Positions 8,132-58,915 of a stretch of 64,000 nt of DNA are shown one piece after another. A program made the translations under genes and the position numbers. The number at the start of each line of letters is the position of its first letter. Within the stretch, counting starts at the first letter, position 1. The notes beneath the pieces were generated by a model. The model saw only the letters and a list, made by a program, of their open reading frames with translations. It did not search any database and was not told the origin of the DNA. This DNA comes from Candidatus Woesebacteria bacterium (lineage in GTDB: Bacteria; Patescibacteriota; Microgenomatia; UBA1400; UBA1396), in contig CAVVNJ010000002.1 of assembly GCA_963749595.1 (NCBI GenBank), positions 96,606-160,605 on the forward strand, written 5' to 3'.

Positions 8132-8159
8132 TTGACATTTTTGTTGTAGATATTACAAT
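8132..8159 (+). promoter_or_regulatory. sigma70-type promoter, leaderless start
   Basis: TTGACA (8132-8137), a 16-nt spacer, TACAAT (8154-8159), then 6 nt to ATG 8166. Confidence 0.6.
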
Positions 8160-8165
8160 CGGCCC

Positions 8166-8810
8166 ATGCTTAAAGTATCGGATAGTGTGCGAAGAATCTT
8201 ATTGGGAGACGACGTTGCCCTGCAATCTCTCGAGTCCGGCATCTTAAACTTCAGCGCCTATGCCGCCAAGATCATTCTGGAAGTCGAGAATCTAACTTTT
8301 AAACCGGTAAAAAAGGGAACAGTGGTGGTCGCCCTGACCAGATTGGCTCAAGAAATAGGTGGTCTGGCGCCTTTAAAACCAAGGGTTATTTTGGACGATC
8401 TTAGTATTCGTTCACCGCTTTGTGACATTACTTATCCCAAAACGCCAGCCAACCGTGCAAAATTGGCCGAATTGCCAAAAATAGTCCCGATTGGCGAGAA
8501 TGCCTTCCTCGCTACGACCATCGGCTTAAGCGAAATTACGATTATTGCTCCGCAGTCTTCCTTAGATAGAATATTGGCCCATTTTGTAGACTCACCGAAA
8601 GCAGTACTTAAAGATCTGGTCGGAATTACAGTCCGATTCGATGAAAAGTATCTGCAGATACCGAACGTTCTTTATACTTTGCAGGCTGCTCTGGCCGTTC
8701 AGCGGATTAATTGCTTAGAAGTCATCTCTACCTACACTGAATTATCTTTCGTTATTGAGGCCAAGGATTTGGAGACCGCCACCAAAGCCCTGCGGCGATT
8801 TTTCGAATAA
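8166..8810 (+). CDS. hypothetical protein
   Basis: 214-aa ORF with coding-like composition and no motif I can name with confidence. Confidence 0.6.
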   Translation: MLKVSDSVRRILLGDDVALQSLESGILNFSAYAAKIILEVENLTFKPVKKGTVVVALTRLAQEIGGLAPLKPRVILDDLSIRSPLCDITYPKTPANRAKLAELPKIVPIGENAFLATTIGLSEITIIAPQSSLDRILAHFVDSPKAVLKDLVGITVRFDEKYLQIPNVLYTLQAALAVQRINCLEVISTYTELSFVIEAKDLETATKALRRFFE

Positions 8811-8838
8811 GAAAATTCCCACCAACTTAGACTTCCAC

Positions 8839-8981
8839 TTGACTGCATAGACAATAAACGGCATAATTAGGCGTTAATGAATCACAGTTCTGTTTGTAAC
8901 ACTGTTTCAATTATCAGGCCCTCCTAGGCGGAAAGATTCTGGGATTATCCCGATTCACCCGCCAAACGGCGGGACTTTTTT
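8839..8981 (+). promoter_or_regulatory. promoter + 16-codon micro-ORF + intrinsic terminator (candidate attenuator leader)
   Basis: TTGACT (8839-8844), 17 nt, then CATAAT (8862-8867). The micro-ORF 8877..8927 encodes MNHSSVCNTVSIIRPS. The terminator is CCCGCC-aaac-GGCGGG plus T6 (8958-8981). GGCGG at 8927-8931 could pair with the terminator 5' arm. Confidence 0.45.
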
Positions 8982-9006
8982 GCATCAATAAAATATTAAG
9001 GAAATT

Positions 9007-10637
9007 ATGAAAAGAAATCAACAAAATAATAACGTTAAAGAACAGCGCTTCTTGGTTAATCTGCAAGAGATGGCTTTCGCGAAAGTGGTGGAACAGTACG
9101 TCAACTTCAGCGAAATGAAAGAGAATTTAAATCAGCTCTTACCGCTAGTAAATCCAGCCTTCATTTATTTGCGGGAGTCGTATATTGCGGTGCTCTAGAC
9201 ACTTCCTATCATTTAGCTCAACAAGCCCTTGCCGGATCCCGTTCAAATCCGAATCGAATCACCGGTGCCAAGCTATCTTCGACCGATTATAAAAGGATCC
9301 TCCAGCATCACTTTCCGCAAGCCGCCAAGATCTGGGTTCTGGACGGTTTAGTTTTTAAACAACAATCGGCTGGTCTAAAACATCTCGCCGGCTTCAACGA
9401 TAACTCGGGAACCTTGATCGATGTCCTTAATTCTGCCGCTTCACTTAGTTTGGGAGCTGAAAACCCCTGGTTAGTGAAAGCCGACCACTTGGAAGACCTG
9501 CTTGGGATCCGTGACAATATCTGCGCGGCCTATCATCCTGGTGTTAGACAAGCGTTTGCGCTGGAGTCTTTAGCAAAACTCTTTCCCAATAAAACCGTTG
9601 CCGATGTCGCAGTGCATACGGAATCATCCGGCACCATCGTCAACTCCGTGGCGATTGAATCAGCGGTCGCCTTTGCGGAAAGAACTCATAATGCGACCAA
9701 GCCAATGCGACTTTTGGCCGTCGACGGCACGTGGGCTGGGGGATATGGCTCGGCTCGGGAAGCAACCGGGTTCGGTGTCGATCAACACCAAGTTAAGCGA
9801 GCTGGAAAAAGCACTTGGGCTGATCGTTGTCTGCCGCCGCCAACATCGGAAAACCGAACAAAATTTCTCGCCGTCGTCAAGGCCGAGTTAAAGAAACAAA
9901 CTGTGGCTGGAGTTTATCTTGAACCAGACGTAGTGGGGGATTTGGGGTTAGTTACTACCGACCCCCAGCTACTCCAACAAATCAAACATTTAATGAGCCG
10001 TCATCAATTGCCTATCATTTTGGATTGCGTGCAACAACTAGGCCGTTCCGGCAGCTATTGGGGCGAAAATGTGGATCGGATCTTTGCTGATTATCCGCTG
10101 CTGATTGTGACTACGGCTAAATCAGCTTCCAACGGTCAGCCTTTCGGTTTTACCCTGATGCCCAAGGAAGTCGCCGATGCGGCCGCCCCTCTTACTCAAA
10201 TCACCACTAACCAGATGAATGGGCCTTTGTTGCGATCACTGGTGGTGGCGGAAATTCTCAATAACGTCGAGTTCCAAACTTGGCTAAAAAGAAAATCACA
10301 CCAAATCGAAGAAATAGCCGACAAATATGGTTTCGCAATCGGCTCGCATGGATTGAGGGGAAAATATCTCAATCGTGGTGTCTATTTAAAAGATAATGAG
10401 CTTGTTAAGTTGGCTCAGATTGCCTTATTGGTTGAAGACGGTATTCTGGTCGGTGCAACACCAAATACCATCCGCTATCAACCAATGCTTTTGGAGTATA
10501 GCGAAACGAATCGGCTGATTGCAGAATTAATCTTTCGGAGAGTAAAACTAGTTCTAGATGGGGTTGTATCTTCGGAGGTGCAGTCTATTTTTGACCGAAT
10601 GCGTGACGCGCCAACTGGTTTAGCCAGAAAATGCTAA
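9007..10637 (+). CDS. class-III (PLP-dependent) aminotransferase-like protein, one frameshift near 9175-9200
   Basis: DCVQQLGRSG resembles DEVQTGfGRTG, and TTAKSASNG supplies a candidate PLP-lysine. The frame of ORF 9414..10637 is open back to about 9120 with no start codon. It joins ORF 9007..9198 only through a 1-nt shift. Confidence 0.65.
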
Positions 10638-10646
10638 ACTATCCCT

Positions 10647-10946
10647 ATGTCCTACCCCACCAAATCCGACCGAGAACTAATCAGCGCCTTTTCACAGCTG
10701 AAAAACGAAAAGGAAGTCACCGGCTTTCTCCGCGATCTCCTTACTCCGGCCGAAATCGAGGAGTTTTCCCGCCGCTTCCAGATCGCCAAACTGCTCTGGA
10801 CCACCAAGCTGTCCTATGCCGACATTGCCGAAAAGGCGAAGACTAGCACGACTACTGTCACCCGGGTTGGCCAATGGTTGTACAAGGAATCTTGGCACGG
10901 CTACCGGGTCGTTCTCCAGAGAACTTTTGGTGATTCCAAGCGTTAA
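10647..10946 (+). CDS. TrpR-like YerC/YecD family DNA-binding protein
   Basis: 99 aa with LLTPAEIEEFSRRFQIAKLL...SYADIAEKAKTSTTTVTRV (HTH). TGcTAAACT lies 6 nt upstream of the ATG, indicating a leaderless start. Confidence 0.8.
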   Translation: MSYPTKSDRELISAFSQLKNEKEVTGFLRDLLTPAEIEEFSRRFQIAKLLWTTKLSYADIAEKAKTSTTTVTRVGQWLYKESWHGYRVVLQRTFGDSKR

Positions 10947-10968
10947 TTCATGTTAGCGTATTAGCATG

Positions 10969-11163
10969 TTGACATACTATCTTTCCTAAGTTATACTGCA
11001 GCCATGTTAAAGCAATGGACCAATTTATTGGCAATCCATCACCACCTCCTTACTAGCGGGGTGATTTAACGTACTAAAAAAATAAAACAAGAAAACGTAG
11101 TCCCACCCCGCAGCACAGCGGGGTTTTTCGTACCGCAAAAAACGAAAGGACTGCGTTTTTTTA
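10969..11163 (+). promoter_or_regulatory. promoter + leaderless 21-codon micro-ORF (HHH) + two nested terminators (candidate attenuator)
   Basis: TTGACA (10969-10974), 17 nt, TATACT (10992-10997), then 6 nt to ATG 11004. The micro-ORF 11004..11069 encodes MLKQWTNLLAIHHHLLTSGVI. Terminator 1 is CCCCGC-agcaca-GCGGGG plus T5 (11106-11128). An outer stem pairs ACGTAGTCC (11095-11103) with GGACTGCGT (11148-11156) and is followed by a T-run. Confidence 0.5.
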
Positions 11164-11181
11164 TTGAAAGAAAGGATATGT

Positions 11182-12087
11182 ATGTCATATCAAGAAAATA
11201 GACCCTATGTAGTTTCGACAGATAGCCGGGGCTTACTCAAAAGTTGGGCGAGAAAGAACCAGCTCACGCTACCAAACGATGCGTACTTTCAGGGAATGCT
11301 CAAAGACCTTGAAGCAACCCTGAGACAGTATTTTGCTGAGGTTGAGATCGTGCCGGAAGAGTTCTTGCGCCAGGGACTCAATAGACTAATCATTAATTCG
11401 CCCGTTCCGGTGGTCTCGCTCGACCGCGCCTATGTCAACCCCAAACAAAGCAAGCTCTTGGGATTTTTGGACGCAACCAGAACGGTCGATACCAATCTCA
11501 ACAGCACTGGTTTGGGCAGTCGTGGGTTAGAGATCACTCTCGAGCGACAAATTGGGCAACTGGCAGCTAAACAGAGTGGAAAAACCATCGCACTGGCTGA
11601 CGACGTTATTTTTGAGGGAAAAACCATGCTCCAGCTAGTACAGAAATTCAGAAATAAAGGGGTGGTGGTTGATTCCGTCCTGGCGGGAATCGCCATTAAG
11701 GAGGGCAAAGAGCTGCTCGAACAAAATGGCATCAGGGTTGATTCTCTTATCGTTTATGACCAAGTCATTGACGAAATCTGTGAGCGCGATTTTGTTGTCG
11801 GCTGTCCATATTCGGGACGGAGCGTGGTTAATGGCCAAGGAATAATTGAGGGCGCTCCCTACCTTTACCCGTTTGGCAAGCCAGTGGAGTGGGCTTCTAT
11901 CCCACCAGAGGAAGCAGTAAACTTCTCCCTTTTTGCTCTGTACCAATCGCTGCAACTTTGGACTAAGACCGAACAACTTTCGCGCCAAAGTATCCCCACC
12001 CAACAAGTTGGCAAACCAGTCTTTGGTCTACCGAAAGGTAAATCAATAAGTGAAGCACTTGCTGCGGTAATGAAAGAACTCAAATAA
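11182..12087 (+). CDS. type-I phosphoribosyltransferase-domain protein, substrate unknown
   Basis: PRPP-binding-type motif IALADDVIFEGKTM. The ~130-aa N-terminal extension has no recognisable family. ATG 11182 has AAAGGA upstream. Confidence 0.6.
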   Translation: MSYQENRPYVVSTDSRGLLKSWARKNQLTLPNDAYFQGMLKDLEATLRQYFAEVEIVPEEFLRQGLNRLIINSPVPVVSLDRAYVNPKQSKLLGFLDATRTVDTNLNSTGLGSRGLEITLERQIGQLAAKQSGKTIALADDVIFEGKTMLQLVQKFRNKGVVVDSVLAGIAIKEGKELLEQNGIRVDSLIVYDQVIDEICERDFVVGCPYSGRSVVNGQGIIEGAPYLYPFGKPVEWASIPPEEAVNFSLFALYQSLQLWTKTEQLSRQSIPTQQVGKPVFGLPKGKSISEALAAVMKELK

Positions 12088-12112
12088 ATGCTGACTCTGA
12101 AAGGATTGAATT

Positions 12113-12610
12113 ATGAGACCAGAAACTAAACTTCTATTTATCGCAGCCACGCACGGCAATGAAAATTTTTCCATCCCAGTGTTTAAAAGCCTGGAGTCTG
12201 AATACCCTAGGAATAAGTGGGGCTATGACTGGATTATCGGCAATCCTAAAGCCCTAAATCAAGGGAAACGGTTTACTGAGACCGATCTTAACCGATCGGC
12301 GCCCGGTGATCCCAACTCATCACTTTACGAAGAGCGAAGAGCCGCCGAATTGATCGAAACTGCTCAAGACTACGATATGATTGTGGATATACACGGTACG
12401 GTTTCGCCTTGCGGTCTGGTCAAGATCATTCCCAAACCTAGTATTGAAAATCTGGCTCTGGCTTCGCTGTTTCCAGAGTTGGTAAACATCATCTGGTATT
12501 CCGCTCGATCTTTGAAAAAGGGCCCGCCGGTTCAGTTCATGGCAAAACCCGCACTGGAAATTGAGTGCGCATTGAGGACACATTTTTGTATCAATAGAAA
12601 GGAAATATGA
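12113..12610 (+). CDS. succinylglutamate desuccinylase/aspartoacylase (AstE/AspA, M14-like) family protein, short
   Basis: ATHGNE, DLNRSAPG and DIHGT zinc/active-site-like motifs. At 165 aa it is only about half the usual length. Confidence 0.55.
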   Translation: MRPETKLLFIAATHGNENFSIPVFKSLESEYPRNKWGYDWIIGNPKALNQGKRFTETDLNRSAPGDPNSSLYEERRAAELIETAQDYDMIVDIHGTVSPCGLVKIIPKPSIENLALASLFPELVNIIWYSARSLKKGPPVQFMAKPALEIECALRTHFCINRKEI

Positions 12611-13161
12611 AAACAAAAAATAGATTGCAAATCGGCGTCATGGGTTCGGCCGCCGACCTGAAATATGCCAGGGAAGTGGAACAAGCCGCTGAAAAACTCG
12701 GTGAGTTAATTGCCCAAAATGATGGCATTCTTTTCTTTGGCGCCGAAAAAGATAGCGACTCGTTATCGACGGCTGCCTGCAGAGGAGCAAAAAAGGCCAA
12801 TGGACTGACCGTTGGCGTCACGTATGGCAAGGGCAAAAACATCTGGGAGAAGGACTATGCTGACGTGATAATCCCGAGCGGTTTGGAGCGGGGAGGCGGC
12901 AGAGAGTTGGTACTGGTTTTGGCTTGCGACGCCATCATCTCTATCAGCGGCGGTTCGGGAACACTAACTGAACTAGCGATTGCCTACCAGGCTGACATTC
13001 CCATGGTGGCTCTGAAAGGGTTTGGTGGCTGGTCTGACCAACTTGCTGGCACCTATTTTGACGGGCGAAAACGTCGGAAAGTGGTCGAAGCTAACAATCC
13101 GGAAGAAGCCGTAGAAATTGCACTGCGCTTAGCCAGTGAGTACCGATCACGCTTCGTCTGA
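12607..13161 (+). CDS. TIGR00725/LOG-like (SLOG) Rossmann-fold protein
   Basis: IGVMGSA near the N-terminus and ISGGSGTLTELA. It overlaps the upstream stop (ATGA). Confidence 0.7.
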   Translation: MKTKNRLQIGVMGSAADLKYAREVEQAAEKLGELIAQNDGILFFGAEKDSDSLSTAACRGAKKANGLTVGVTYGKGKNIWEKDYADVIIPSGLERGGGRELVLVLACDAIISISGGSGTLTELAIAYQADIPMVALKGFGGWSDQLAGTYFDGRKRRKVVEANNPEEAVEIALRLASEYRSRFV

Positions 13162-14631
13162 AATAATCTCCTTAAATGCCGGCCGCACTAGCTGATACGC
13201 CTCTCTTACAAACTGGGCTTTAATTTCCTGACAATCCTCTAGATCCGCAATCGTCCGAGCCACTCGCCACAACTTTAGCTTCCGCCGTAGCGACCAATAC
13301 TTCGTTAATTTTCCTGGCAAAATCTGACTTGAATAACCACCCAGTTGTTGTAGCGCCGTCTTTTCGTACAGCCGACAATACTCCGGCAATCCGTCTTTCA
13401 CCCTGGCTTCCTGTTTTCGCCGCGCCGCCGTAATCTTTTCCCGCCAAACAACCACTTCTATGGGTGAAAGCGTCACTCGGTCCTCAATTGAGACTCTAAC
13501 TTGGAGATCAATCCGGTCCAGCACCGGCCCGGAAATTTGCTCAACGTAGCGCTTAACCTCCGAATCACGGCAATCGCACTTATCGGTACCATAAAAGCCA
13601 CAGGGACAAGGGTTGGCCGTAGCAATCATGGTAAATGAACAAGGCAGCGTCCAAGCTCCGCCGCCACGCACCAGCGTTAAACGCTCGTTCTCCAGGGGTT
13701 GGCGCAGGGCTTCAAGACAAGCGCGAGAAAATTCCGGCAACTCGTCTAAAAATAAAATGCCGCGATGCGCCAAAGTAATCGCGCCAGCCCGCACCGGTCG
13801 GCCGCCACCGATCAGGCCAGCAAGGGTAGCCGAATGGTGAGGCGCGACAATCCGCCCCGGAGGAATGTCGGAAAACGCCCCGATACTTTCACGTACCTGC
13901 CGTTCCCAAACTTGAGCTTCCGTCTCCTCAGGCAAGAGAATCGGCAACATACTCCGCGAATAGGTTTTTCCCACGCCGGGACTGCCAAATAGTAGTAGAT
14001 GATGACCGCCGGCTAGAGACAAAGCTAGCGCCCGCAATAGTTGCTTGGAAATCGTCAAGTTTTCGCTTGATAATGGACTGGACTTAGTTTTTGGCCGGCC
14101 CACCACGCTGGCCAGGGGCAGGAGACAACTGCTGCCGCTTAAACCCAGATATAGTTCGCGCAGCGAATTAGCCGGATAGATCGCTCGGCTAACTAGCGGC
14201 CCTACTGAACGATCGATCACGTCGGCAGAAGTGTACACTCGTCCCTGAGACGAGAGATTATCAAGTAAGGCCAAGTATTCCGGATTGGAATGCAAGGCCC
14301 CATCCAAACCCAATTCGCCGATTGCCGTATAGGGACGATTAGGAATCAAGCGATTAACAGCTAAAACTCCCAACGCAATCGCCAAATCTAAACTCGAACC
14401 GCTTTTGGGTACTTCGACTGGCCGCAAACTGATCACTAATCTTTTCCGCGGCAGCGACAAACGCAAGCTGCGCAGCGCCGAAAAAACCCGGTCCTTGCTT
14501 TCCAGTACCGAAGCATTGGGTAAACCGATCAACGAAACCGTCGGAAGCGAAGTGCTGGAACTTTCCACCTCGATCTCCACTGGTTGGACCGTTGGTCCGC
14601 AAACAACGGCCGAATAAACGCGTGCTACCAT
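13147..14631 (-). CDS. comM: YifB/ComM-family Mg-chelatase-like AAA+ ATPase
   Basis: N-terminal Lon-protease-like domain, Walker A (GSPGVGKT), ILFLDELPEF and the C-terminal ComM region. 494 aa. Confidence 0.9.
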   Translation of the reverse strand: MVARVYSAVVCGPTVQPVEIEVESSSTSLPTVSLIGLPNASVLESKDRVFSALRSLRLSLPRKRLVISLRPVEVPKSGSSLDLAIALGVLAVNRLIPNRPYTAIGELGLDGALHSNPEYLALLDNLSSQGRVYTSADVIDRSVGPLVSRAIYPANSLRELYLGLSGSSCLLPLASVVGRPKTKSSPLSSENLTISKQLLRALALSLAGGHHLLLFGSPGVGKTYSRSMLPILLPEETEAQVWERQVRESIGAFSDIPPGRIVAPHHSATLAGLIGGGRPVRAGAITLAHRGILFLDELPEFSRACLEALRQPLENERLTLVRGGGAWTLPCSFTMIATANPCPCGFYGTDKCDCRDSEVKRYVEQISGPVLDRIDLQVRVSIEDRVTLSPIEVVVWREKITAARRKQEARVKDGLPEYCRLYEKTALQQLGGYSSQILPGKLTKYWSLRRKLKLWRVARTIADLEDCQEIKAQFVREAYQLVRPAFKEIISDEA

Positions 14632-14640
14632 GAGAGGTAT

Positions 14641-15484
14641 TTAAACAAACAATACTGACAGAATACTTACCAAAACCAGATACCATGCAAAGTACACCAG
14701 GCGTGAATGCTTCATCGTGTACTCTAAAATCCATAAGGCCAGGAAGCCGAAGAGGGCCGAAGCAACCGTGGCGAGCAGATAAAAGCCCCAATCGATACTG
14801 ATTGCCACCCGCTCCCTGCCACAGGTCAACCAAATCTAAAGTGATCGCTCCGGCGATTGCCGGGATGCTAATAATGAAAGCGAATTCGAAAGCTTTGGTG
14901 CGTGGCAGACCAACGATCAGACCCGCAAAGAGGGTGGCTCCAGAACGGGAAACCGCCGGTAGAATAGCCAAGGCCTGAAATAATCCGACAAAGAAGGCCT
15001 GCCAAGAGTTGGGAGCGCTTAATTGGTAGCGCAGCTTAGCGCGATCAGCGATTTTCAATAAACCCTGGGAGACTTTCTCCCAAAATCGCCCACCCTGATC
15101 CTGACGATCTTCCTGGCGCAACAATTGGTCGGCCACGAACATAAAAAAGGCCGAAAATAAGAACTGGATGGCCAGGGCAGGCGGGCTAGTTTCGGCCGTT
15201 TCCAGATAGGGTTTTAGCAGCAAACCAAAACCAATCGCCGGAATGGTCGCGACCACAATCTGCAACCAATATTTTTGCGATAAATGTAGGAGCTGGCGGC
15301 GAAAATAGTAAACCAAGGCCAACAACGTGCCGATATGGACGATAATTTCAAAAGATAAGGAAAGCTGGGTAACGCCCAACCAGCGCTCGGCGAGAGCCAG
15401 ATGACCAGAGCTGGAGATCGGCAAAAATTCGGTAAAACCTTGCGTGGCGCCTAGGACAATCGCTTTCCAAAGGGAAAGTTCCAT
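14641..15484 (-). CDS. uppP: undecaprenyl-diphosphate phosphatase (BacA/UppP), one frameshift near 14800
   Basis: The N-terminus is GATQGFTEFLPISSSGHL. The true C-terminus (SIDWGFYLLATVASALFGF...) lies in ORF 14641..14829. The 376-aa track ORF is a read-through artefact into comM. Confidence 0.85.
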
Positions 15485-15490
15485 AAAATT

Positions 15491-16177
15491 TTAGGGTTGC
15501 TGCCGACGCTGTTTTTCTTCGTTAACCATGGAAGTCAGTGATTCCCGGACCAAATCCTTGGCCCCCAAACCAATCGCCAGACCAATCGACAGGGCGGTGG
15601 CCAGAATGAATCCGGCAAACAGCACCAAGATGAAGTCGCTGGCAATCCCCAGCTCGGACAACGCAATCAGGGCGAACAAGGACAACGTAAAGTAACTAGC
15701 CAAGGTCCCGGCCAAAACCGATTGCTGCGGGGCCAGACGTTTGAACTGTTTTTTAACAACCCGTTCGGCCACACCGGCAATAACCACGCCAAAGCCCAAG
15801 ACAATTAAGGCGGAGAGAACCCTAGGAACGAAGCCTAGGATTAGCGAAACAAAATTCGTGAAGAGAGTAATGCCGAGAATTTCTCCGGCGATCGAAAGGA
15901 AAAGTAACATGATCGTCCAAAAAACTAGATTAGAGAAAACCCCGGAGCCTTTCAGGGCATGGGTGGACTCAAAAATACTGCCTAGGGGCGAATCTTGAAC
16001 CAGGCGGCGACCAAAGACCGCTTTGAAACTCCGCCGAACAAATTGAGTCAGCTTGCGGGAGATGATCAAGCCAATAATCAGGACCAAAACACTGAGAGCA
16101 ACGCGCCAAACCGCTCCGGAAACCAGAGCGAACTGGGGTGAAAAGGGGGCAGTGGCGGAAAACCAGGAGGTGGCCAT
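15491..16177 (-). CDS. multi-pass membrane protein, hypothetical
   Basis: Several hydrophobic helices. I place the start at MATSWF. No catalytic motif seen. Confidence 0.55.
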   Translation of the reverse strand: MATSWFSATAPFSPQFALVSGAVWRVALSVLVLIIGLIISRKLTQFVRRSFKAVFGRRLVQDSPLGSIFESTHALKGSGVFSNLVFWTIMLLFLSIAGEILGITLFTNFVSLILGFVPRVLSALIVLGFGVVIAGVAERVVKKQFKRLAPQQSVLAGTLASYFTLSLFALIALSELGIASDFILVLFAGFILATALSIGLAIGLGAKDLVRESLTSMVNEEKQRRQQP

Positions 16178-16221
16178 AACCTCATTGTACACGATTTTTT
16201 CCCAGCACAAGAGCTGATACC

Positions 16222-18006
16222 TCAGTCACGAAAAAGTTCGCTCAACTGCGACGCAGGCAAGGTGTTGGCGACGTCTTTAGCCTGAGCCCAACCGCGACGA
16301 GCCGTCCAAACACCGTACTTCATAAAATCAAAATTGGATAGTGAGTGACTATCGCTATTTATCACCAATTTTATGTCGGACTCAATCGCCGTATGAACCA
16401 GGGCGTCCGGCAGGTCTAAGCGCCAGGGAGAAGCATTAATTTCGATCAGAATCTTGGCTTGAGCACAGACCTTAAATAACTCAGTCCAATCATATTCTAA
16501 TCCCCGACGCTCATTAATTTTTCGCCCGGTGGGATGTCCCCAAATCATTGCTTTGGGGTGAGAGAGTGCCCGTTTCATCCGCTCGGTAGCTTCCTTCGCC
16601 GATTCACTAAAATTGGAGTGAACGGAAACAATCGTGTAATCTAACTGGTCGATCGCTTCATCTTCCAGAGCCAGACTGCCGTCGGAACGGATATCGATTT
16701 CCAGACCCTTGAAAACGGTCAGTTTTTTCTTAGGATTAGCCCGCTGCCATTTTTCGTGGGCCCGTTCAATCTGTTCGTTACGTTTTTCAACATAGCGGCG
16801 GCGGTCGGTCGCGGACAATCCGCTGGCTTTGGGCTGATGGTCCGAAATCCCAAGATATTCGTAGCCGCGCTCCGCCGCCGCCGAGAAAAGTGCCGCCAAT
16901 GAGTCCTCCCCGATATCGTGACTGCTTGGCCAATCGAGATTGCAATGAACGTGCAAGTCACCGCGGATATCGTTCGCCTCAACCAAGTGCGGTAATTTTC
17001 CAGTTTTGGCGGCCTCAATTTCTCCACCGTCTTCCCGCAATTCCGGCGGAATATTGTCCATGCCCAAAAACCGATAGAACGATTCCTCGTCCTGGAATTT
17101 TTTGAGACCTGCCTTCGTTTTGATCCCATACTCCGATAACGAATAGCCATTTTCTTTGGCCAACGTGCGCAAATGGATATTGTGCAGTTTAGAACCGGTG
17201 TAGTGCTGCAACAAGCTACCCCAACTTTCCGGCGGTTGAGTTTTCAAATCGATTTGCCTGCCGGAATTATGCGTCATCATCGCTGTATTTTCGCCTGAAG
17301 AAACCAGGCGCTTCAGTTGGGGAAAGCGCTGCAATTGTTCAAAAACTTCTTTTGGCCGACGGGTTTTAATCGCAAGGTCAATGTCGCCTATGGTCGAACT
17401 ATGACGGCGAAGACTACCAAGGTTCTCCACCGCCTCGACTTCCGGAAGAGTGCTTAGATATGCCATCACTTCGCTGGCAATGGCTTCCGCCTCGGACAAA
17501 AAAAGGCGGTACTTGGTCGGATGATGACGCAAACTACCCAAAGCCCGTCCCAACTCCGCGATGGTCTTCTCCCCGATGCCGGGAACATTGACTAAATCCC
17601 CGTCCTCGACCGCGGCGACAAGTTTTTCCAGCGCAGTCTCAGCAGAGTTAAGTTTTAATTTGGTTGCTAGTTTATGCGCGGTTTTTGGTCCAACGTCTGG
17701 CAAGTCCAGCAGAGCAAACATTCCGCCTGGCAAATCATTCATCACCTCATCAAAGTGTTTCACCCGTCCGGTACGAAATAGTTCGTCCAAGTGTTCAATC
17801 AAATTGGGACCCAGTCCTGGCACGCGCTCCAGCGCTTTTTCCCGCCACAGGTCATAGAGATCGGCACCGGCGTGATCAATACTTTCGGCAGCACTGGTAT
17901 AGGCGCGAGTGCGAAAATAATCCCCGGACTTTACTTCATAGGCCGCCGCCACCTCCCGAAACAGTCGAGCAACTTCCTGATTGGTGGGATGCTTACCTAA
18001 CTTCAT
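16222..18006 (-). CDS. polX: family X DNA polymerase with C-terminal PHP domain (PolX)
   Basis: 594 aa with HhH motifs (LPGLGPNLIEHL, VPGIGEKTIAEL), the Pol-beta-like GDIDL motif and PHP histidines (DLHVHCN...SDH). TACAAT (18013-18018 on the minus strand) lies 6 nt from the ATG. Confidence 0.9.
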   Translation of the reverse strand: MKLGKHPTNQEVARLFREVAAAYEVKSGDYFRTRAYTSAAESIDHAGADLYDLWREKALERVPGLGPNLIEHLDELFRTGRVKHFDEVMNDLPGGMFALLDLPDVGPKTAHKLATKLKLNSAETALEKLVAAVEDGDLVNVPGIGEKTIAELGRALGSLRHHPTKYRLFLSEAEAIASEVMAYLSTLPEVEAVENLGSLRRHSSTIGDIDLAIKTRRPKEVFEQLQRFPQLKRLVSSGENTAMMTHNSGRQIDLKTQPPESWGSLLQHYTGSKLHNIHLRTLAKENGYSLSEYGIKTKAGLKKFQDEESFYRFLGMDNIPPELREDGGEIEAAKTGKLPHLVEANDIRGDLHVHCNLDWPSSHDIGEDSLAALFSAAAERGYEYLGISDHQPKASGLSATDRRRYVEKRNEQIERAHEKWQRANPKKKLTVFKGLEIDIRSDGSLALEDEAIDQLDYTIVSVHSNFSESAKEATERMKRALSHPKAMIWGHPTGRKINERRGLEYDWTELFKVCAQAKILIEINASPWRLDLPDALVHTAIESDIKLVINSDSHSLSNFDFMKYGVWTARRGWAQAKDVANTLPASQLSELFRD

Positions 18007-18020
18007 GAAACCATTGTATC

Positions 18021-18046
18021 CAAAAACGCCCTCCGCGAGGAGGGCG
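18021..18046 (-). terminator. intrinsic terminator of rnpB
   Basis: On the minus strand, the CGCCCTCC-tcgc-GGAGGGCG stem is followed by TTTTT. Confidence 0.7.
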
Positions 18047-18059
18047 TTAATGATTTTGT

Positions 18060-18362: not shown

Positions 18363-18368
18363 ACTCAT

Positions 18369-18397
18369 ATTATATAGGATTTTTGCCGTTATGTCAG
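18369..18397 (-). promoter_or_regulatory. rnpB promoter
   Basis: On the minus strand: CTGACA, 17 nt, TATAAT, then about 7 nt to the GGCGATC start of the RNA. It overlaps the 3' end of the AI-2E gene. Confidence 0.6.
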
Positions 18398-19438: not shown

Positions 19439-19455
19439 TGCGTTCAGTATACCGT

Positions 19456-46654: not shown

Positions 46655-46681
46655 TCAAGAAAAGCTTGATATAGTTTGCTG

Positions 46682-47870: not shown

Positions 47871-47920
47871 ACTTTGCCCCTATACCTGTTTGTACTCAAC
47901 CGTTATTATAGTAGGGTTCT

Positions 47921-49099: not shown

Positions 49100-49138
49100 A
49101 ATACTTCAATTTCAGAGAAAGTACGCTATACTGATGCT

Positions 49139-49736
49139 ATGGCTAAGCTCACCGACTTCATCATTTCCAAGGTGCGCGTCAAGATGCTGGAGTTATTCTT
49201 CCGCAACCCCAACAACCTGTTCTACGTGCGGCAAATCACTCGGGAAATCGACGAAGAAATTAATGCCGTCCGGCGCGAACTGGAACGAATGTCTGAGACC
49301 GGCATGCTAAAAAGCGAAAAACGCGGTAATCGGCTGTATTATTTTCTTAACCGACAGTACGATTTTTATTCCGATTTGCTCCGAATGCTGGCCAAAACCA
49401 CTGGACTGGGACTGGCAATCAAGAAAAGTCGGCAGGTAATCGGTAATCCAAAATTTGTGATGTTCTCCGGAAAATTTGCCCAGCACCGCAATCGGGCAAT
49501 GGACGAAGTTGATATTCTGCTGGTCGGCGACATCAAGATGCAGGCCCTGGAACCACTGGTTAAAGAAGAAGAAAAGTCGCGGGGACATGAGATAAATTAC
49601 ACTGTCATGACTCTCGACGAGTTCGAGTTCCGCAAAGCCAGACATGATCCTTTCTTGCAGGAAGTGCTGGCGGGCGGGCCGAATCATGATCCTCGGCGAC
49701 GAAGATGCACTAGTCGAACGCAAGAGCGAACGGTAA
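49139..49736 (+). CDS. winged-helix transcriptional regulator-like protein, one frameshift near 49675
   Basis: N-terminal wHTH-like region (VRQITREIDEEINAVRRELERMSETGML). The natural C-terminus RIMILGDEDALVERKSER* is in another frame. The 347-aa track ORF fuses it to secD. Confidence 0.55.
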
Positions 49737-49745
49737 ACTACCAGC

Positions 49746-51133
49746 GTGGCCAAGATTCGTTTCCGCTTATCACTCCGCTTGTCAAGACGAAACTGCAGTT
49801 CTTTTTGACGACGGTGCTGCTGGCTGTCGCACTCCTGGTTGCTTTGCCAAACCGGTTCACGATTCCCTGGCCCAAGCCAATCGAAATTACCAAGCTCTCG
49901 TTAGATTTTACCCGACATCGGCCTGCCGATTTCGACCAATCAACCGTTGAAAAAGGACTCGATATCGTTGGCGGCACCCAAGTCACTTTGGCAGCCGACA
50001 TGAAGGATATCCCGGTGAGGAACGCGACAACGCTCTGGCCAGCGTGGAGGAGGTCTTGCGCCGACGAGTGGATCTTTACGGCGTGGCTGAACCGCGTATC
50101 CGCAGCTCGGTTTGGGGTGATCAGTACCGGATTCTGGTCGAGTTGCCCGGACTGGACCAGCCGCAGCAGGCCCTACAGCTGATTGGACAGACGGCGCAGC
50201 TGTCGTTTCGCGAAATTGAGCCCTCCGTTGCCATTGCCACCGACGCGGCCAACCTAACGCTGGACACGTTTATTCCCACCGGCCTGGGCGGAACGCAGCT
50301 GCGCCGCGCTACCGTGCAGTTTAGTCCGACGGGCGAGCCGGTCGTTTCGATCGAATTCAACAGCGAGGGCGCGACGCTCTTCGGCCAGATTACCGAGCGA
50401 AACGTCAGCAAACCGCTGGCGATCTTCCTGGATGAACAGCCGGCATCGCTGCCGGTGGTCAACGAAGCCATCCTGGGCGGCACGGCCCAGATTTCCGGCA
50501 ATTTCACCCTGGAGCAAGCTAAAACCCTGGTCAGCCAACTCAACGCCGGCGCGCTGCCGGTCCCGATCCAAATCGTGGAACAAAAAACCATCGGGCCGTC
50601 CCTCGGCCAACAGTCGCTCAATCTCTCGGTGCACGCCGGCTTCATCGGCATCGCGCTGGTGATCCTGTTTATGATTTTGCTCTACGGCTGGGCCGGCTTG
50701 ATCGCTGATTTCGGCCTGATCGCCTATGGCATCCTCACCGTGGCGCTGTACAAACAAATTCCCGTCACGCTCAGTCTTCCCGGTATCGCCGGACTCTTGC
50801 TCTCGATCGGTATGGCGGTGGACGCCAACATTCTCACCTTCGAGCGCATCAAGGAGGAATGGCGGGCGGGCAAATCCTGGCCGGAAGCCTTGCGGCTGGG
50901 CTTTGGCCGTTCCTGGGACAGCATTAAGAGCGCCAACTTGGCCACCTTGGCGATCTGTTTTATTCTGTTCAATCCGCTCGACTGGGGTTTTCTCAACACC
51001 AGCGGCCCGGTGCGCGGCTTTCGCCCTGACTCTGGCCCTGGGCATCGCGGTTAGCCTCTTCACCGGCGTATTTTACTCCCGGCTGCTGGTGCAACTGTTC
51101 CTAGCGCCGACCCAAACGCAGGAGGTTAAATGA
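49746..51133 (+). pseudogene. secD: protein translocase subunit SecD, frame broken at least 3 times
   Basis: GLDIVGGTQVTL, RVDLYGVAEPRI, LGGTAQISGNFT and GPSLGQQS, then the TM bundle ending GFALTLALGIAVSLFTGV in the frame of ORF 50726..51133. Shifts lie near 49765, 50005 and 51020. The stop overlaps the secF ATG (ATGA). Confidence 0.85.
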
Positions 51134-52021
51134 CCGTTCACTGGATGGCGCGCCGGCGCTGGTACTATTTATTTTCCGGGACCCTAATTCTGTTGGGTTT
51201 ACTGGCCATTCTCCTGGGCGGACTAAAGCCGGCGCTGGAGTTCACCGGCGGTTCGCAACTGATCGTGCGCGATACCAGTAATCGGATGCGAGGTTGCTTG
51301 GCGACGCAGCCAAAAAGCCTCGAAACGAGCAAAGATCGAACGACCGACGATTATTCCCTTGGCCGACAACGAATACGAATTCGATTTGGCAACTTGACCA
51401 ATCACCCAGAAAGACGGCTTTACTAACCAGCTGGCGGACCAGCTTGCCTGATTCGGAAATCTAAGGAACTGAGTTTTCAGAGCGTCGGTCCGACGATCGG
51501 CGGGAGTTGCTGACCAAAACCGGCTACGCCGTCGGTCTGGCGGTGATTGTGATTTTGGCCTATCTCTGGCTACAGTTTAACGATTGGCGCTTTGGTCTGG
51601 CCGGCGTTTTGGCCATGCTGCATGACACTTTTATCGTCACCGGCACCTTCGCGGTCCTGGGTTATTTTCTCGGAGTGAAGGTCGACGTGCTGTTCGTGAC
51701 GGCCTCTGTTAACAATTCTGTCCTTTCTCGGTCCATGACACGATCGTTTTGTTCGACCGCTACCGCGAGCTGCGCCGCACCACGCGCGCCACGGTTTCGG
51801 CCGAAGAATTGGCGGATTTGGCGGTGACGCAAACGGTGACACGGTCGTTAAATAATTCATTGACGATTCTGATCATGTTGGCGGCCTTGTTGCTGTTGGG
51901 AGGGGAGTCGTTGCGGTGGTTTGCGATGGCGTTATTTGTGGGGACACTGATTGGGACGTACTCAAGTACCTTCACAGCGTTGCCGTTATATGTGGATTTG
52001 GTGAAATGGGATAAAAAGTAG
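51130..52021 (+). pseudogene. secF: protein translocase subunit SecF, frame broken at least 3 times
   Basis: LKPALEFTGGSQL (N-terminus), LAMLHDTFIVTGTFAVLG, and RYRELRR...TRSLNNSLTILIMLAALLLLGG spread across three frames. Confidence 0.82.
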
Positions 52022-52146
52022 TAAACCCAATCGAAGTCTAAAAGACTGCATCATCAAACTATTTCGACCAATTTATCCTGAAAACACAGAATATAAGCCC
52101 TAACTGCTTATTCACAGGCTAAAGTACTTCGGGTATTATTCGAGCC

Positions 52147-53739
52147 ATGCGGATCTTACCGGAGAGATTTACCGATTTCATTCAAGAGCATCCCAAGGCT
52201 GTAAGGCGCACCGTCATTTTTGGTGTATCGGCATTCCTGATCAATCTTGGTGTTGATCTGAATAACAACGGTCAACCAAAACACGAGATTGCGCCGCAAC
52301 CGGGACTTCCGACCGAGAATACTGGTGTAGAAACTCCCGCGGTCGAGCTTAAAAAATTACCTGTCTTCTTTCCGGCTGGGTCCTCAGCTCACGAAGAAGC
52401 GGCTCCGGAAGCATCGGAAACTCAAAAACCGATATATATATTCCCAGAAGTAAAAGCCTCCAAAGCTGCACAAGAAGAAACAAAATCAGATCAGGTGGAG
52501 CCAGCCGCGAAACCGGTAGAAACTCAAGAAAAGAAGACTATATTCCCGACCGGCATGGAAACTTCTCCCGGTTTTAGTTCTTACTTGTTGAATAATCCAA
52601 TTCACCGGGCTGCTGATCTGGTTAGCTATAAGCAAATGGTCCAAGAAACCTATGCCACCAAAGAACTGGTCAGTGATTTCTTATTCGAACAAGTACTTAA
52701 CGGCGAATTAGATATTATCCCTGGAAATACCGTCGAAGATTTTGGTCACGGTTTTTCTGAACAGCTCTGGCTGGATTTGGTTCCAATGGAACAACGAATC
52801 GATAGCACTTTTACGAGCGAAAGTCTGTCTGCTGCCCGCAATGAATTTGAATTCCAACCCTTAGTCTTTAAAGACGGCGCTTTCGAGCACCCAGGCGCTC
52901 TTTGGAATGTTGATCCCGAAACCGGCGTGGAAACTTTTGCTTACGTTGCCGCTGATTACGACAATGCCCAAACCGTAATGGTCTTGGCTGCAGCTGGTCG
53001 ATTGGAAAACCAGATGGGTTCGGAAGCCTGGAGTCAATTAAGCCAAAACGAAAAAACCACCCAAGCCGTTGATTTGTTCCGCTCTTGGATTTTAGAAACA
53101 CGAGAGAGTGTTGCTCCTGGAACCCCTCATCGTGTCATTACCGATGAAAATGGCAAAAAACTATTTGAGCTGTATTTCCCTGAGGAAAACGGTTCCTTTG
53201 TAACTTGCCGCATTGAAGTTCAACCAGGCCTAGACTCTCGTGATGATCAAGAAGCAGGTAAATTTATCAGGGAAAAAGTAAAAATTAAATTCCAGCCAAA
53301 AAATAATCTCCAGGCAAATTTCTTTGAACTGAGCCGCAATGGCGATTTTTTGCCTATAATTATTTTTGATCCGGCGACTGGTCAAACGCGAGTTGAAATG
53401 TGGGATCTGTCTACCGGATTCAAATTTATTCCTGATGGTTGGCAAGCTCCTGACGGTCCGTTTGAAGAGAGCGATCTGGTGATGCCGATGGATTCCTGCG
53501 GCGTTGATCAACCGTCAGTTGCACCGATAACTCCTCAACCTACTCCCGGTCAGCCACCAATAATTCCGCCGCCACCTGAAACCTGCGAGGAACGCGGTGA
53601 TTGTCCTCCTCCACCACCCAAGACACCAGAAAAACCAAAAGGAGATGGTGTAAACCCAGACGGTGAAGATGAAATATTACCCGGTGGCGGCCTAATTGAA
53701 GGTGAAGATAATCCTCCACCTACTGGATCAGGATACTAA
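52147..53739 (+). CDS. hypothetical secreted protein with Pro-rich C-terminus
   Basis: 530-aa ORF with an N-terminal anchor and a C-terminal [34 protein letters not shown] lies 7 nt upstream of the ATG. Confidence 0.55.
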
Positions 53740-56455: not shown

Positions 56456-56485
56456 TGTGCTATATTTTCAAAGGAGGAGAGTGAT

Positions 56486-56824
56486 ATGCCTAGAACCATT
56501 GAACAACCACCCATTCCTGATGAAATCGAAAACATTTTTGCCCGTTACTACAATTATTTTGGTGATATTGCCCTAACCGAAGGCTATATTCGGGCCGTTG
56601 AAGCCGGTCACATTGCCCTGCGCGAGTCGGTCGATTTGGATATCGCCGATAAATCCAGGGATCAAAAAACCAAGCGATTAAAGCAAAAAATGACCAAAGA
56701 GCGCGGTCTAGAATTTACTCCGGAGATAGATACCTTGTTTGAAGCTTATCTGGAACAAGTCATTACTCAGCTGCTGCCAGGTGTTGGTCGAATTCTGAGC
56801 ATTGGTGAGCCAAAAACGCGTTAG
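56486..56824 (+). CDS. hypothetical protein
   Basis: 112-aa ORF with an AGGAGG SD. Confidence 0.5.
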   Translation: MPRTIEQPPIPDEIENIFARYYNYFGDIALTEGYIRAVEAGHIALRESVDLDIADKSRDQKTKRLKQKMTKERGLEFTPEIDTLFEAYLEQVITQLLPGVGRILSIGEPKTR

Positions 56825-57354: not shown

Positions 57355-57442
57355 ACAACCGCAATTATTAAGCTATCATAATCCCGAATAATAGGCAAAT
57401 ATATCTTTATGTTTCAGGCCCATAGTTTCAGAGTAAACGACA

Positions 57443-57471
57443 TTGACCAGTCCCCAGATGACCAGTACAAT
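57443..57471 (+). promoter_or_regulatory. greA promoter
   Basis: TTGACC, 17 nt, TACAAT, then a ~40-nt leader with an AAAGG SD. Confidence 0.6.
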
Positions 57472-57512
57472 ACCCCTCCATGCCCAGGTAATTGGGCTAA
57501 GAAAGGTTTACC

Positions 57513-57986
57513 ATGACCGATCCCAACCAGGTTGTCCAGATGACCCAGCCGGGATATGACGAGATTCTCGCCGAGCTCAAAGAGCTCAAGGAAGTAAAAA
57601 TTCCGGCGGCGATCGATCGCGTGGCCCAAGCCCGTTCTTACGGCGACCTCTCTGAAAACTCCGAATATCATGCCGCTCGTGAAGATTTGGCCGTACTTAA
57701 TGGCCGTTTGGAAGAAATCGAGTACCTTCTCCAGCGGGTCCAAGTCGTCAAGGCCAATGGCTCCAAGACTGTTGGCGTTGGTTCCAAAGTCGTCGTCAAG
57801 GTCGCCGGCAAGGAACCGGAGCACGTTTTCCACGTGGTGGGCGAATGGGAAGCCGATCCGGCCGAGAAAAAAATCTCGGAAAAATCTCCTTTGGGTCAAG
57901 CCTTAAGCGGCAAGAAAAAGGGCGATCAAGTTGAGTTTGAAGCCCCGGCCGGCAAAGTGATTTACCACATCCAAGACGTCAAATAA
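57513..57986 (+). CDS. greA: transcription elongation factor GreA
   Basis: GDLSENSEYHAAREDL motif, 157 aa, and the C-terminal FKBP-like domain. Confidence 0.92.
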   Translation: MTDPNQVVQMTQPGYDEILAELKELKEVKIPAAIDRVAQARSYGDLSENSEYHAAREDLAVLNGRLEEIEYLLQRVQVVKANGSKTVGVGSKVVVKVAGKEPEHVFHVVGEWEADPAEKKISEKSPLGQALSGKKKGDQVEFEAPAGKVIYHIQDVK

Positions 57987-58012
57987 AGCCTGGGCTGTGG
58001 TACAATCTCACA

Positions 58013-58915
58013 ATGGAAAAAAAGACCAAGTCGACCACCAAAAAAGCTGCCGTCAAGTCGGCCGCGGCGGAAAATAAGACCGCCGAGCTGATCGTTCCCA
58101 GCCACACCTTTGCCCTGACTATTAAGCACGCCGACACCGCCGCGGCCCGCCAACGAGCGCTGCAACGGGCCCAGCAATCGGTCAAAATCGACGGCTTCCG
58201 TCAGGGGAAAGTCCCGCTCAAACTAGTCGAAGAGCGGATCGGCAGCCAAGGTTTGCTGGAGTTGATGGTCGACGACCTATTACCGAAAGCCTACCGCGCT
58301 TACCTGGAAGAAAACAAACTCCAACCCCTGACTGACCCGGAAGTGAAGCCCAAATCTCTGGAAGAGGGGAAAGACTGGGAATTTGAAATCGCCATCGCGG
58401 TGGCCCCGGAATTAACCCTGGGCGATTACGCTGCCATCGTCAAGGCCACTCCGGTTCCGGAGCACGGCGAACATGATGGTCATGATCACAGCGCCGAGGA
58501 ATTAAAACAAATCCAACTGCAGGCCATTCTGGGCGAATTGCTGAAGAATATTCCGGTTAAAGTTCCGGAGCTACTACTCCGCAAGGAAACCGAACACCGC
58601 CTCCACCAAATCGCTCACCAACTCGAGCGCGTTAACCTTTCCCTTGAAGATTATTTAAAAAACATCAATAAGACCCAGGAAGAACTGCAACAAGAATATG
58701 CCATCAGCACGATGGCTTCGTTGCAAGTCGAGTTGCTTCTGGCCGCGATCATTAAAACAGCTGATTTAAAAGTCGAAACGGCCGAACTGGAAGCCCTGAT
58801 TAAAGCTCGTCTGGCCAACCGCAAACCGGAAGAGAAGCTGACTCGTGAGGAATTAAACTATCTCCACTCGGCTCTTCTTAAGCAAAAAGCCATTGATCAT
58901 CTTTTGAGCTTGTAA
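58013..58915 (+). CDS. tig: trigger factor-like chaperone lacking the PPIase domain
   Basis: Ribosome-binding signature GFRQGKVP in the N-domain, joined directly to a helical C-domain. Only 300 aa. TGgTACAAT lies 6 nt upstream of the ATG. Confidence 0.72.
   Translation: MEKKTKSTTKKAAVKSAAAENKTAELIVPSHTFALTIKHADTAAARQRALQRAQQSVKIDGFRQGKVPLKLVEERIGSQGLLELMVDDLLPKAYRAYLEENKLQPLTDPEVKPKSLEEGKDWEFEIAIAVAPELTLGDYAAIVKATPVPEHGEHDGHDHSAEELKQIQLQAILGELLKNIPVKVPELLLRKETEHRLHQIAHQLERVNLSLEDYLKNINKTQEELQQEYAISTMASLQVELLLAAIIKTADLKVETAELEALIKARLANRKPEEKLTREELNYLHSALLKQKAIDHLLSL

Follow-up and report, generated by a model that had tools for sequence, protein, structure and literature searches.

The stretch of DNA analysed here (the window) comprises 64,000 nucleotides (nt) of contig CAVVNJ010000002.1, which has a length of 174,862 bp. 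It carries the housekeeping genes ychF, rpsF-ssb-rpsR, polX, trmD, greA, tig, thrS, infC-rpmI-rplT and secDF, together with two tRNA genes and the RNase P RNA gene. Its host appears to belong to the Patescibacteria (candidate phyla radiation, CPR), close to the Microgenomates group, an approximate placement which is taken from the best named homologues of marker proteins. For ThrRS these come from a Patescibacteria group bacterium and Ca. Roizmanbacteria (66% identity), for YchF from the Patescibacteria group, Ca. Pacebacteria and the Microgenomates group (61-62%). The trigger factor, which lacks the peptidyl-prolyl isomerase domain as do Paceibacterota matches, agrees with this placement. The subject of this analysis is a -10-like hexamer which lies at a short distance upstream of many start codons in the window, and its bearing on leaderless transcripts, i.e., mRNAs without a 5' untranslated region (UTR). 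Twelve such pairs of hexamer and ATG had been listed in an earlier reading of the sequence, referred to here as the original prediction. All twelve were found, with gaps of 6-7 nt between hexamer and ATG.

Distance between -10 hexamers and start codons

Pattern counts were performed on both strands of the window and are independent of gene calls. TAYAHT-N6-ATG occurs 11 times, compared with 1.43 +/- 1.21 matches in 100 dinucleotide shuffles (shuffle maximum 5), and TAYAHT-N7-ATG occurs 7 times, compared with 1.38. The excess over the shuffles is 8-fold. When all gaps from 0 to 40 nt between TA[TC]A[ACT]T and ATG are plotted, a peak is seen at 6-7 nt alone, the other gaps having about 1.3 matches each. 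Under a neutral start rule, each non-overlapping open reading frame (ORF) of at least 100 amino acids (aa) was taken to begin at its first in-frame ATG. TAnAnT then precedes 16 of 66 window ORFs (24%) at gap 6-9, versus about 5% for any other four gaps, and with a second neutral start rule TANNNT was found at 22 of 58 ORFs. A count of -10-to-start distances, as had been proposed with the original prediction, gives a peak at 6-7 nt in the window without gene calls, and an enrichment at gaps 6-9 with neutral starts in the window and with public gene calls in its relatives.

As an alternative, the pattern could be an artefact which stems from chance, from the AT-rich composition of intergenic DNA or from wrongly placed starts. 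Chance alone would account for two or three of the 18 strict pattern matches, and some matches open no real gene: ATG 36143 starts an ORF of 6 codons, and ATG 6904 lies within the M20 peptidase gene, in frame with its start at 7165 and downstream of it. Against such an artefact stand the 8-fold excess over shuffles with its peak confined to gaps 6-9, the absence of the geometry from control taxa, its persistence with neutral start rules and third-party gene calls, and its conservation at orthologues (the last three are described below). It was rejected on these grounds and is, in our view, extremely improbable.

Eleven of the twelve listed pairs are located on the plus strand. The ACT-domain gene (8166-8810) is preceded by TTGACA-16-TACAAT-N6-ATG (8132-8168), and its ATG is the first start codon of the ORF. 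The TrpR/YerC-like gene carries TGcTAAACT-N6-ATG (10632-10649) with the -10 element inside the 3' end of the upstream gene. ATG 11004 opens a leader peptide with the arrangement TTGACA-17-TATACT-N6-ATG, followed by a 21-codon ORF, hairpins and a terminator (10969-11131). A gene for an MNT-like nucleotidyltransferase, 36 nt past tRNA-Glu, has TGcTATACT-N6-ATG (24545-24562), with ATG 24605 as an alternative start. TATACT-N7-ATG (38363-38378) precedes a 133-aa gene, where the -10 element begins 5 nt past the upstream stop codon in a 17-nt intergenic gap. A histidine phosphatase gene (TGaTAAAAT-N6-ATG, 43763-43780), a putative frameshifted gene at ATG 44451 (TACAAT-N7-ATG, 44438-44453) and a PAP2 gene (TGaTATAGT-N6-ATG, 46667-46684) follow. 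The 198-aa-family gene upstream of secD has TATACT-N6-ATG (49127-49141), and a 530-aa gene has TATTAT-N7-ATG (52134-52149), the orthologues of the latter showing TATAAT and TATTAT at gap 8. The promoter of the trigger factor gene tig, TGgTACAAT-N6-ATG (57998-58015), overlaps the end of greA. On the minus strand, polX has TACAAT-N6-ATG (18004-18018) directly past the rnpB terminator.

The list was incomplete, as about 17 further starts show the same geometry. Eleven of them are found on the minus strand: a gene running off the left window end (start 451, TATAAT-N6-ATG, 449-463), a mechanosensitive-channel-domain gene with a public call of 228 aa (start 16177, TACAAT-N6-ATG, 16175-16189), an AI-2E transporter gene divergent from trmD (start 19438, TATACT-N7-ATG, 19436-19451), a 274-aa gene (start 21346, TGcTAAACT-N6-GTG, 21344-21361), the frameshifted rmlA (start 22107, TAGAAT-N6-ATG, 22105-22119), a 315-aa gene (start 27701, TATAAT-N8-ATG, 27699-27715), a response regulator gene (start 32335, TGcTAGACT-N6-ATG, 32333-32350), a PAS histidine kinase gene whose promoter lies within the upstream gene (start 34625, TGcTACACT-N7-ATG, 34623-34641), a Wzy_C-domain gene (start 35731, TGtTACGCT-N7-GTG, 35729-35747), a radical SAM gene with an uncertain start (42768, TGcTAAAAT-N8-GTG, 42766-42785) and a 108-aa gene (start 62439, TATGAT-N6-ATG, 62437-62451). 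The plus strand contributes ychF (start 1301, TATAAT-N9-ATG, 1286-1303, predicted leader 0-3 nt), a frameshifted NUDIX gene (start 37131, TATAAT-N7-ATG, 37118-37133), rmlC (start 42831, TTGACA-15-TATGAT-N9-ATG, 42795-42833), a DUF3048 gene (start 47921, TATAGT-N8-ATG, 47907-47923), a gene at ATG 59007 (TATACT-N9-ATG, 58992-59009) and a 110-aa gene 23 nt past tRNA-Val (start 59882, TATACT-N6-ATG, 59870-59884). Over the 29 aligned sites, the gap is 6 nt in 16 cases, 7 nt in seven, 8 nt in three and 9 nt in three.

Several findings indicate that these codons are true starts. In 15 of the 29 cases the chosen ATG is the first possible start codon of the ORF. Pfam domains begin 4-16 residues past the methionine in ychF (GTPase domain from residue 5; homologues have 360-361 aa), polX (HHH_8, residue 8), the histidine phosphatase (His_Phos_1, residue 5), the response regulator (Response_reg, residue 4), rmlC (residue 10), the PAS kinase (residue 8), the TrpR-like protein (Trp_repressor, residue 10) and the MNT protein. 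Orthologues of the DUF3048 (47921) and 198-aa (49139) proteins align from residue 1, and the N-terminus of Tig is common to 30 homologues. Public gene calls on the source contig use the same start in 11 of 14 cases checked (e.g., the ACT-domain, polX and PAS histidine kinase genes), the exceptions being 59007, 24560 and 44451. At 59007, orthologues keep an MSG(Q) N-terminus which is encoded from 59007, versus the public start at 59022.

The original prediction had favoured 24560, 46682 and 44451 as true starts. The start at 46682 coincides with the public one; the other two are absent from public calls, and the exact 99-aa product from ATG 24560 is absent from the public protein collection. 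At 44451 the hexamer geometry holds, and it is the ordinary intact gene which does not: the ORF has 72 codons with an N-terminal hydrophobic segment and is followed by fragments in two other frames. Pfam recognises the last fragment (44929-45564) alone, which matches the C-terminal portion of the dienelactone-hydrolase profile. ATG 44451 therefore probably starts a frameshifted gene of the dienelactone-hydrolase family, of which the 72-codon ORF would be the N-terminal fragment, with a putative join to the C-terminal fragment.

Promoter features and Shine-Dalgarno use

For analysis of the hexamer itself, the 29 sites were aligned on it; their selection had used T1, A2 and T6 alone. Adenine at hexamer position 4, a position outside this selection, is present at 25 of 29 sites (p=7e-12). 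Guanine is found at -14 in 20 of 29 (69%, p=8e-7) and thymine at -15 in 15 of 29. The consensus of the aligned sites is TGnTA(T/C)A(A/C)T (TGnTAYAMT), an extended -10 element. Perfect TTGACA -35 boxes occur at 8132, 10969 and 42795, i.e., at three of the 29 sites, one of them at 15-nt spacing.

Genes for stable RNAs served as positive controls. The RNase P RNA with its promoter (18055-18397, minus strand) shows CTGACA-17-TATAAT, with about 6 nt between the last base of the hexamer and the RNA 5' end; this offers an indirect calibration of the distance to the transcription start. TATAAT lies 14 nt upstream of tRNA-Glu (24419-24512, plus strand) and TGgTAAAAT 10 nt upstream of tRNA-Val (59766-59858, plus strand). 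TATAAT-like boxes are also found 18-24 nt upstream of rpmI, thrS, 40467 and 8057, which are led by a Shine-Dalgarno (SD) sequence, and about 85 nt upstream of rpsF. Since the same box occurs at a distance from the ATG that varies with the class of gene, it can be regarded as a transcription signal and not a ribosome signal. The best explanation of the hexamers would be that they are -10 elements of housekeeping sigma-70-type promoters, often in the extended form TGnTAYAMT.

Use of SD sequences was analyzed in a curated table of 72 genes, which comprises 31 leaderless-type starts (TANNNT at gap 5-9), 18 genes with an SD core of 5 nt or longer, 6 whose core measures 4 nt and 17 without either feature. 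That none of the leaderless-type starts carries an SD sequence, as had been claimed, is borne out: a core of at least 4 nt is present at 0 of 31 leaderless-type genes versus 24 of 41 others (p=2e-8). SD 4-mers show a spacing peak at 3-6 nt. Of the 45 genes that are divergent from the upstream gene or separated from it by over 30 nt, 23 fall into the leaderless-type class and 7 carry a strong SD; for the 27 genes that follow their neighbour closely, these numbers are 8 and 11, respectively. A comparison of first and internal genes within the window, also suggested in the original prediction, accordingly gives strong SD cores of at least 5 nt more often at internal genes (11 of 27 versus 7 of 45, p=0.025). 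About half of the transcription units of the window are thus most likely leaderless-type, judged by their start regions (23 of 45 first or own-gap genes; 31 of 72 genes).

Five SD sites had been named as examples of operon-internal genes, and all five are present. AGGAGG-N3-ATG is found at the internal gene starting at 1018 (1009-1020, plus strand) and AGGAGG-N6-ATG at the internal M20 peptidase gene (7163-7177, minus strand, start 7165). AAAGGAGG precedes ATG 43388 of a further internal gene (43377-43390, plus strand) as well as the ATG at 56486 (56470-56488, plus strand), where TATATT about 23 nt upstream may provide the gene with a promoter of its own. The fifth, rpsF (2530), is not internal. 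It is the first gene of its operon and has its own promoter and a leader of about 80 nt (2438-2532, plus strand), with TATACT at 2438-2443, six nucleotides, ATG 2450 at the predicted transcription start site (TSS), and finally AAAGGAG-N3-ATG. ATG 2450, at the predicted TSS of the rpsF-ssb-rpsR operon, opens a 27-codon ORF that extends across the SD and start codon of rpsF, either by chance or perhaps as a leaderless upstream ORF to which rpsF is coupled.

These data can be set against the view that TAnnnT is a non-SD translation signal, i.e., an AU-rich ribosome- or S1-binding site ('group B') on leadered mRNAs from promoters further upstream. The motif is A/T-rich and placed where a ribosome binding site (RBS) would sit, and most sites have no recognisable -35 box, as such a signal would allow. 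However, group B motifs also precede internal genes (PMC6028130), and in the 72-gene table there is no single non-SD motif at first and internal genes alike: internal genes use AAGGAGG and the motif is depleted there. Guanine at -14 and adenine at position 4 are contacts of RNA polymerase and not of the ribosome. In addition, the same motif precedes the RNase P RNA and tRNA genes and lies 18-24 nt upstream of SD-led genes, and the polX box directly follows a terminator. We consider a translation signal of this kind very unlikely.

Conservation in related genomes

Ten related metagenomic loci (L081, L083-L091) with extensive synteny to the window were available, plus L001, the one true relative obtained in a Tig-based profile search of genome contigs; Proteobacteria and Bacilli loci from this search were used as negative controls. 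In loci whose Tig proteins are just 31-63% identical, the -10 element stays 6-9 nt from the ATG while the spacer sequence differs. For tig, TGgTACAAT-N6 is found in the window and L084, TGaTATAAT-N7 in L081, TGaTACAAT-N6 in L083, TGaTATACT-N6 in L085 and TATACT-N8 in L086, i.e., gaps of 6-8 nt. The -10 element is also conserved in position at the orthologues of 52147 and 49139, the gene past tRNA-Val (gaps 6-8), the DUF3048 gene and a penicillin-binding protein (PBP) gene. The mechanosensitive-channel gene has TACAAT-N6 in three genomes (the window, L088 and L089), the AI-2E transporter orthologue in L087 has TATACT-N7, and ychF shows gaps of 9, 8, 6 and 9 nt. Some orthologues switch class: the 198-aa gene is SD-led in L083 (gap 9 in L084) and DUF3048 is SD-led in L084. 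Such switching is expected if the two modes of initiation are interchangeable over evolutionary time.

Among 150 publicly called genes of eight relatives, TANANT occurs 16, 5, 5 and 4 times at gaps 6, 7, 8 and 9, versus 1.2 per gap elsewhere (p ~1e-14), and SD 4-mers in these genes have a spacing peak at 4-7 nt. The modal gap is 6 nt in both sets (16 of 29 in the window, 16 of 30 in the relatives). With the neutral rule, TAnAnT at gap 6-9 reaches 22% in the relatives, close to the 24% of the window. L091, a metagenome-assembled genome (MAG) named 'Patescibacteria group bacterium', has the geometry at 8 of 19 genes. Under the same rule it is missing in the controls, the fraction being 0.4% of 237 ORFs in Gammaproteobacteria and 4% of 208 ORFs in Bacilli, where it does not exceed the background; in four Parcubacteria-type loci it equals the background. 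Two uncultured Saccharibacteria loci (L015, L029) show TAnAnT at gap 6-9 in 6 of 23 long ORFs and an SD 4-mer in 1 of 23. Although these ORFs are few, Saccharibacteria may share the leaderless architecture. One of the relatives, L088 (JGI 3300037424), has a GC content of 59% versus about 50% in the window, despite a YchF that is 90% identical and a syntenic gene order.

Taken together, we assign a probability of roughly 0.85 to leaderless transcription and translation, in the form known as 'group C' architecture of GeneMarkS-2, as the explanation of the geometry. The RNA polymerase holoenzyme would recognise the extended -10 element and begin synthesis 7 nt past the hexamer, and the transcript would start on the A of the ATG or no more than about 3 nt from it; at a gap of 6 nt this A is at the canonical +1. 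The resulting mRNA would have neither a 5' UTR nor an SD sequence, and the ribosome would bind its 5'-terminal AUG by the leaderless pathway. SD sites of the AAGGAGG type would serve operon-internal genes as well as the smaller part of first genes that have short leaders (roughly 12-80 nt). With canonical SD pairing in use, an intact anti-SD is expected. Directly observed are the geometry and its statistical excess, the promoter features, the exclusion of SD sequences, the conservation and the restriction to this lineage among the sampled loci; the TSS position and the translation route we infer from what is established for sigma-70 promoters and leaderless mRNAs. All tests at the sequence level are in favour of the proposal that a large share of primary transcripts is leaderless, which on this basis appears well founded.

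A number of points weigh against leaderless initiation. TTGACA at 16-18 nt spacing is weak or absent at most of the 29 sites, and a two-hexamer promoter scan of the first 20 kb gave 25 hits compared with 18.9 in shuffles, i.e., barely more; weak -35 boxes are, however, consistent with extended -10 promoters, which need no -35 element. The curated table gave priority to the leaderless-type class, and the gene-call-free counts are unbiased and independent of it. The type of start codon does not discriminate between the classes, ATG making up about 88-90% of starts in both, and three of the 29 sites start with GTG. Eight leaderless-type starts (10647, 34625, 37131, 38376, 46682, 58013, 22107 and 4964) lie less than 30 nt past a gene on the same strand, with the -10 box in or just past the 3' end of that gene, and these eight genes could also ride on read-through transcripts, where they would be without an SD. 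The earlier description of the genes as first in their operons thus applies only in the sense that a new transcript would start there. Should the frameshifts described below be assembly indels, an error of 1 nt in individual gaps is possible.

Leader length is the remaining point. Gaps of 8-9 nt are found at six sites. At ctpB (3676-3701) a TGnTATAGT box lies 12-13 nt from the ATG, with no SD, in three genomes (the window, L088 at 6465 and L089 at 14474), which implies a conserved leader of 5-6 nt and would be intermediate between the leaderless and leadered classes. In the window, gaps of 12-13 nt without an SD are seen at the genes starting at 3699 and 36109. The gap 8-9 sites and ctpB would together probably give leaders of 1-6 nt rather than none. 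It could accordingly be argued that the promoters are real, but that the majority of transcripts have a very short leader (2-8 nt) and are not strict 5'-AUG mRNAs, their translation following a different SD-independent route. The modal gap of 6 nt in the window and its relatives, which puts the A of the ATG at +1, argues against this, and in the systems studied the leaderless pathway still accepts leaders as long as about 5 nt (PMC4007540). We regard short leaders as the general rule as unlikely.

Among the twelve listed starts, ATG 11004 is a special case. Its -10 geometry stands, but it does not open the first gene of an operon in the usual sense. It starts a 21-codon ORF for the peptide MLKQWTNLLAIHHHLLTSGVI, with three consecutive His codons at 11037-11045, followed by an intrinsic terminator (11105-11124) with a T run and by an SD-led gene starting at 11182. 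The leader is strongly structured (fold z=-5.2). Its unmasked fold is predicted to be the terminator (-14.1 kcal/mol). When the footprint of a ribosome stalled at the His codons is masked, an antiterminator is predicted in which GCGGGGTG (11056-11063) pairs with CACCCCGC (11104-11111) at -18.3 kcal/mol, and placing the ribosome at the stop codon restores the terminator in the predicted fold. A short ORF with tandem codons, alternative hairpins and a U-tailed terminator are thus all predicted, as in an attenuator. The match to the Rfam family Trp_leader is weak (22 bits versus a gathering score of 41, E=0.023). The 301-aa protein encoded from 11182 has no Pfam match and contains a PRTase-like motif, and the unit (10969-11181) adjoins the TrpR/YerC-like repressor gene (10647-10946). 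A trp/his-type attenuator layout with a leaderless leader peptide remains a model for this region.

Further features of the window were noted. At gathering thresholds, Rfam recovers the two tRNAs alone; the RNase P RNA (18055-18362, minus strand) is visible with an E-value threshold (RF00010, 93 bits, E=4e-29, below the gathering score of 100). Its terminator (18025-18048) abuts the polX promoter. Some divergent start codons are very close to each other, namely those of the AI-2E transporter gene and trmD (17 nt apart, 19436-19458) and those at 451 on the minus and 489 on the plus strand (37 nt apart, 449-491), so that each promoter must sit in the coding region or first codons of the other gene. 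The trigger factor (58013-58915) has about 300 aa with Trigger_N and Trigger_C, no FKBP-type peptidyl-prolyl isomerase (PPIase) domain and a lysine-rich low-complexity N-terminal extension. This PPIase-less architecture is common to the whole homologue set (P0001-P0038) and to Paceibacterota matches.

Several genes are split across frames while their orthologues are intact in L084 and L088: ctpB, htrA, uppP/bacA, rmlA, the NUDIX gene, the gene of the dienelactone-hydrolase family, secD and secF. The regions concerned are 3699-6113, 14354-15484, 21381-22110, 37131-37686, 44451-45564 and 49139-52021, and secD and secF together contain at least four frame changes in 2.3 kb. The frame breaks reflect either indel errors of the assembly or extensive pseudogenisation. 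Finally, a segment of about 7 kb (6110-13146) is absent between htrA and comM in the syntenic loci L088 and L089 and, by this comparison, looks like an insertion or island. Its genes encode an M20 peptidase, an ACT-domain protein, a class III aminotransferase and TrpR-like, PRTase-like, AstE/AspA-like and SLOG/LOG-like proteins.

Comparison with known leaderless systems

The mechanism proposed here is known, and the lineage is one for which we found no paper describing leaderless genes in the literature on leaderless and SD initiation, although an earlier description is possible; the result is useful rather than surprising. The nearest report for CPR is that some Parcubacteria lack the anti-SD motif (PMC9297842). 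The odds seem slightly in favour of leaderless initiation being the main expression mode of primary transcripts across a broad clade of Patescibacteria (Microgenomates-like, possibly including Saccharibacteria), maybe linked to their reduced ribosomes and including leaderless attenuators like the His leader at 11004. If the leaderless reading holds, leaderless-dominated expression would extend from Actinobacteria and Deinococcus-Thermus to CPR, and the reduced ribosomes and deep phylogenetic position of CPR would give this a modest bearing on the question of whether leaderless translation is ancestral.

In practice, a -10 box 6-9 nt upstream can be used as a mark of the true start and could improve start calls in CPR, as for 59007 versus 59022 and for 24560 and 44451. 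This matters because CPR genomes are annotated almost wholly by automatic callers. By this rule, leaderless short ORFs and leader peptides can also be recognised, and a cheap promoter map is obtained for uncultured organisms.

In group C as defined by GeneMarkS-2, first genes of operons have a Pribnow box at a distance of 6-8 nt, internal genes have an RBS, and roughly 25-50% of operons are predicted to be leaderless; this group is typical of Actinobacteria (90%) and Deinococcus-Thermus (97%) (Lomsadze et al., 2018, PMC6028130). By our own counts on 64 kb and the relatives, which are not a GeneMarkS-2 run, the window fits this group, with -10 boxes at about 6-8 nt of first genes, SD sequences at internal and leadered genes and at least 25% of units leaderless-type. 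It differs in that its host is a member of CPR with about 50% GC and not a high-GC Actinobacterium or a Deinococcus, and in the frequent TG of the extended -10 element.

Experiments have confirmed leaderless organisation in M. tuberculosis, M. smegmatis and D. deserti (PMC6028130, PMC4007540). In D. deserti 60% of the mRNAs are leaderless, including those of leaderless leader peptides, and attenuation was predicted for 14 transcripts (PMC4007540). The window shares with it the TAnnnT -10 element, the many mRNAs predicted to start at AUG and the leaderless short ORFs including predicted attenuation leaders (de Groot et al., 2014, PMC4007540), which in D. deserti were shown by differential RNA sequencing (dRNA-seq) and proteomics and here are read from sequence alone. 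Mycobacteria are similar in their TANNNT -10 element, their weak -35 and their many leaderless short ORFs upstream of genes (Cortes et al., 2013; Shell et al., 2015, PMC4633059), and in these bacteria a 5'-AUG or 5'-GUG suffices for initiation (PMC4633059). They belong to another lineage, and the organism of the window keeps strong canonical SD sequences for its internal genes. Archaea of GeneMarkS-2 group D likewise combine a missing 5' UTR with a promoter at a fixed distance from the start codon; the archaeal TATA box, however, lies about 22-26 nt upstream and is read by a different transcription machinery.

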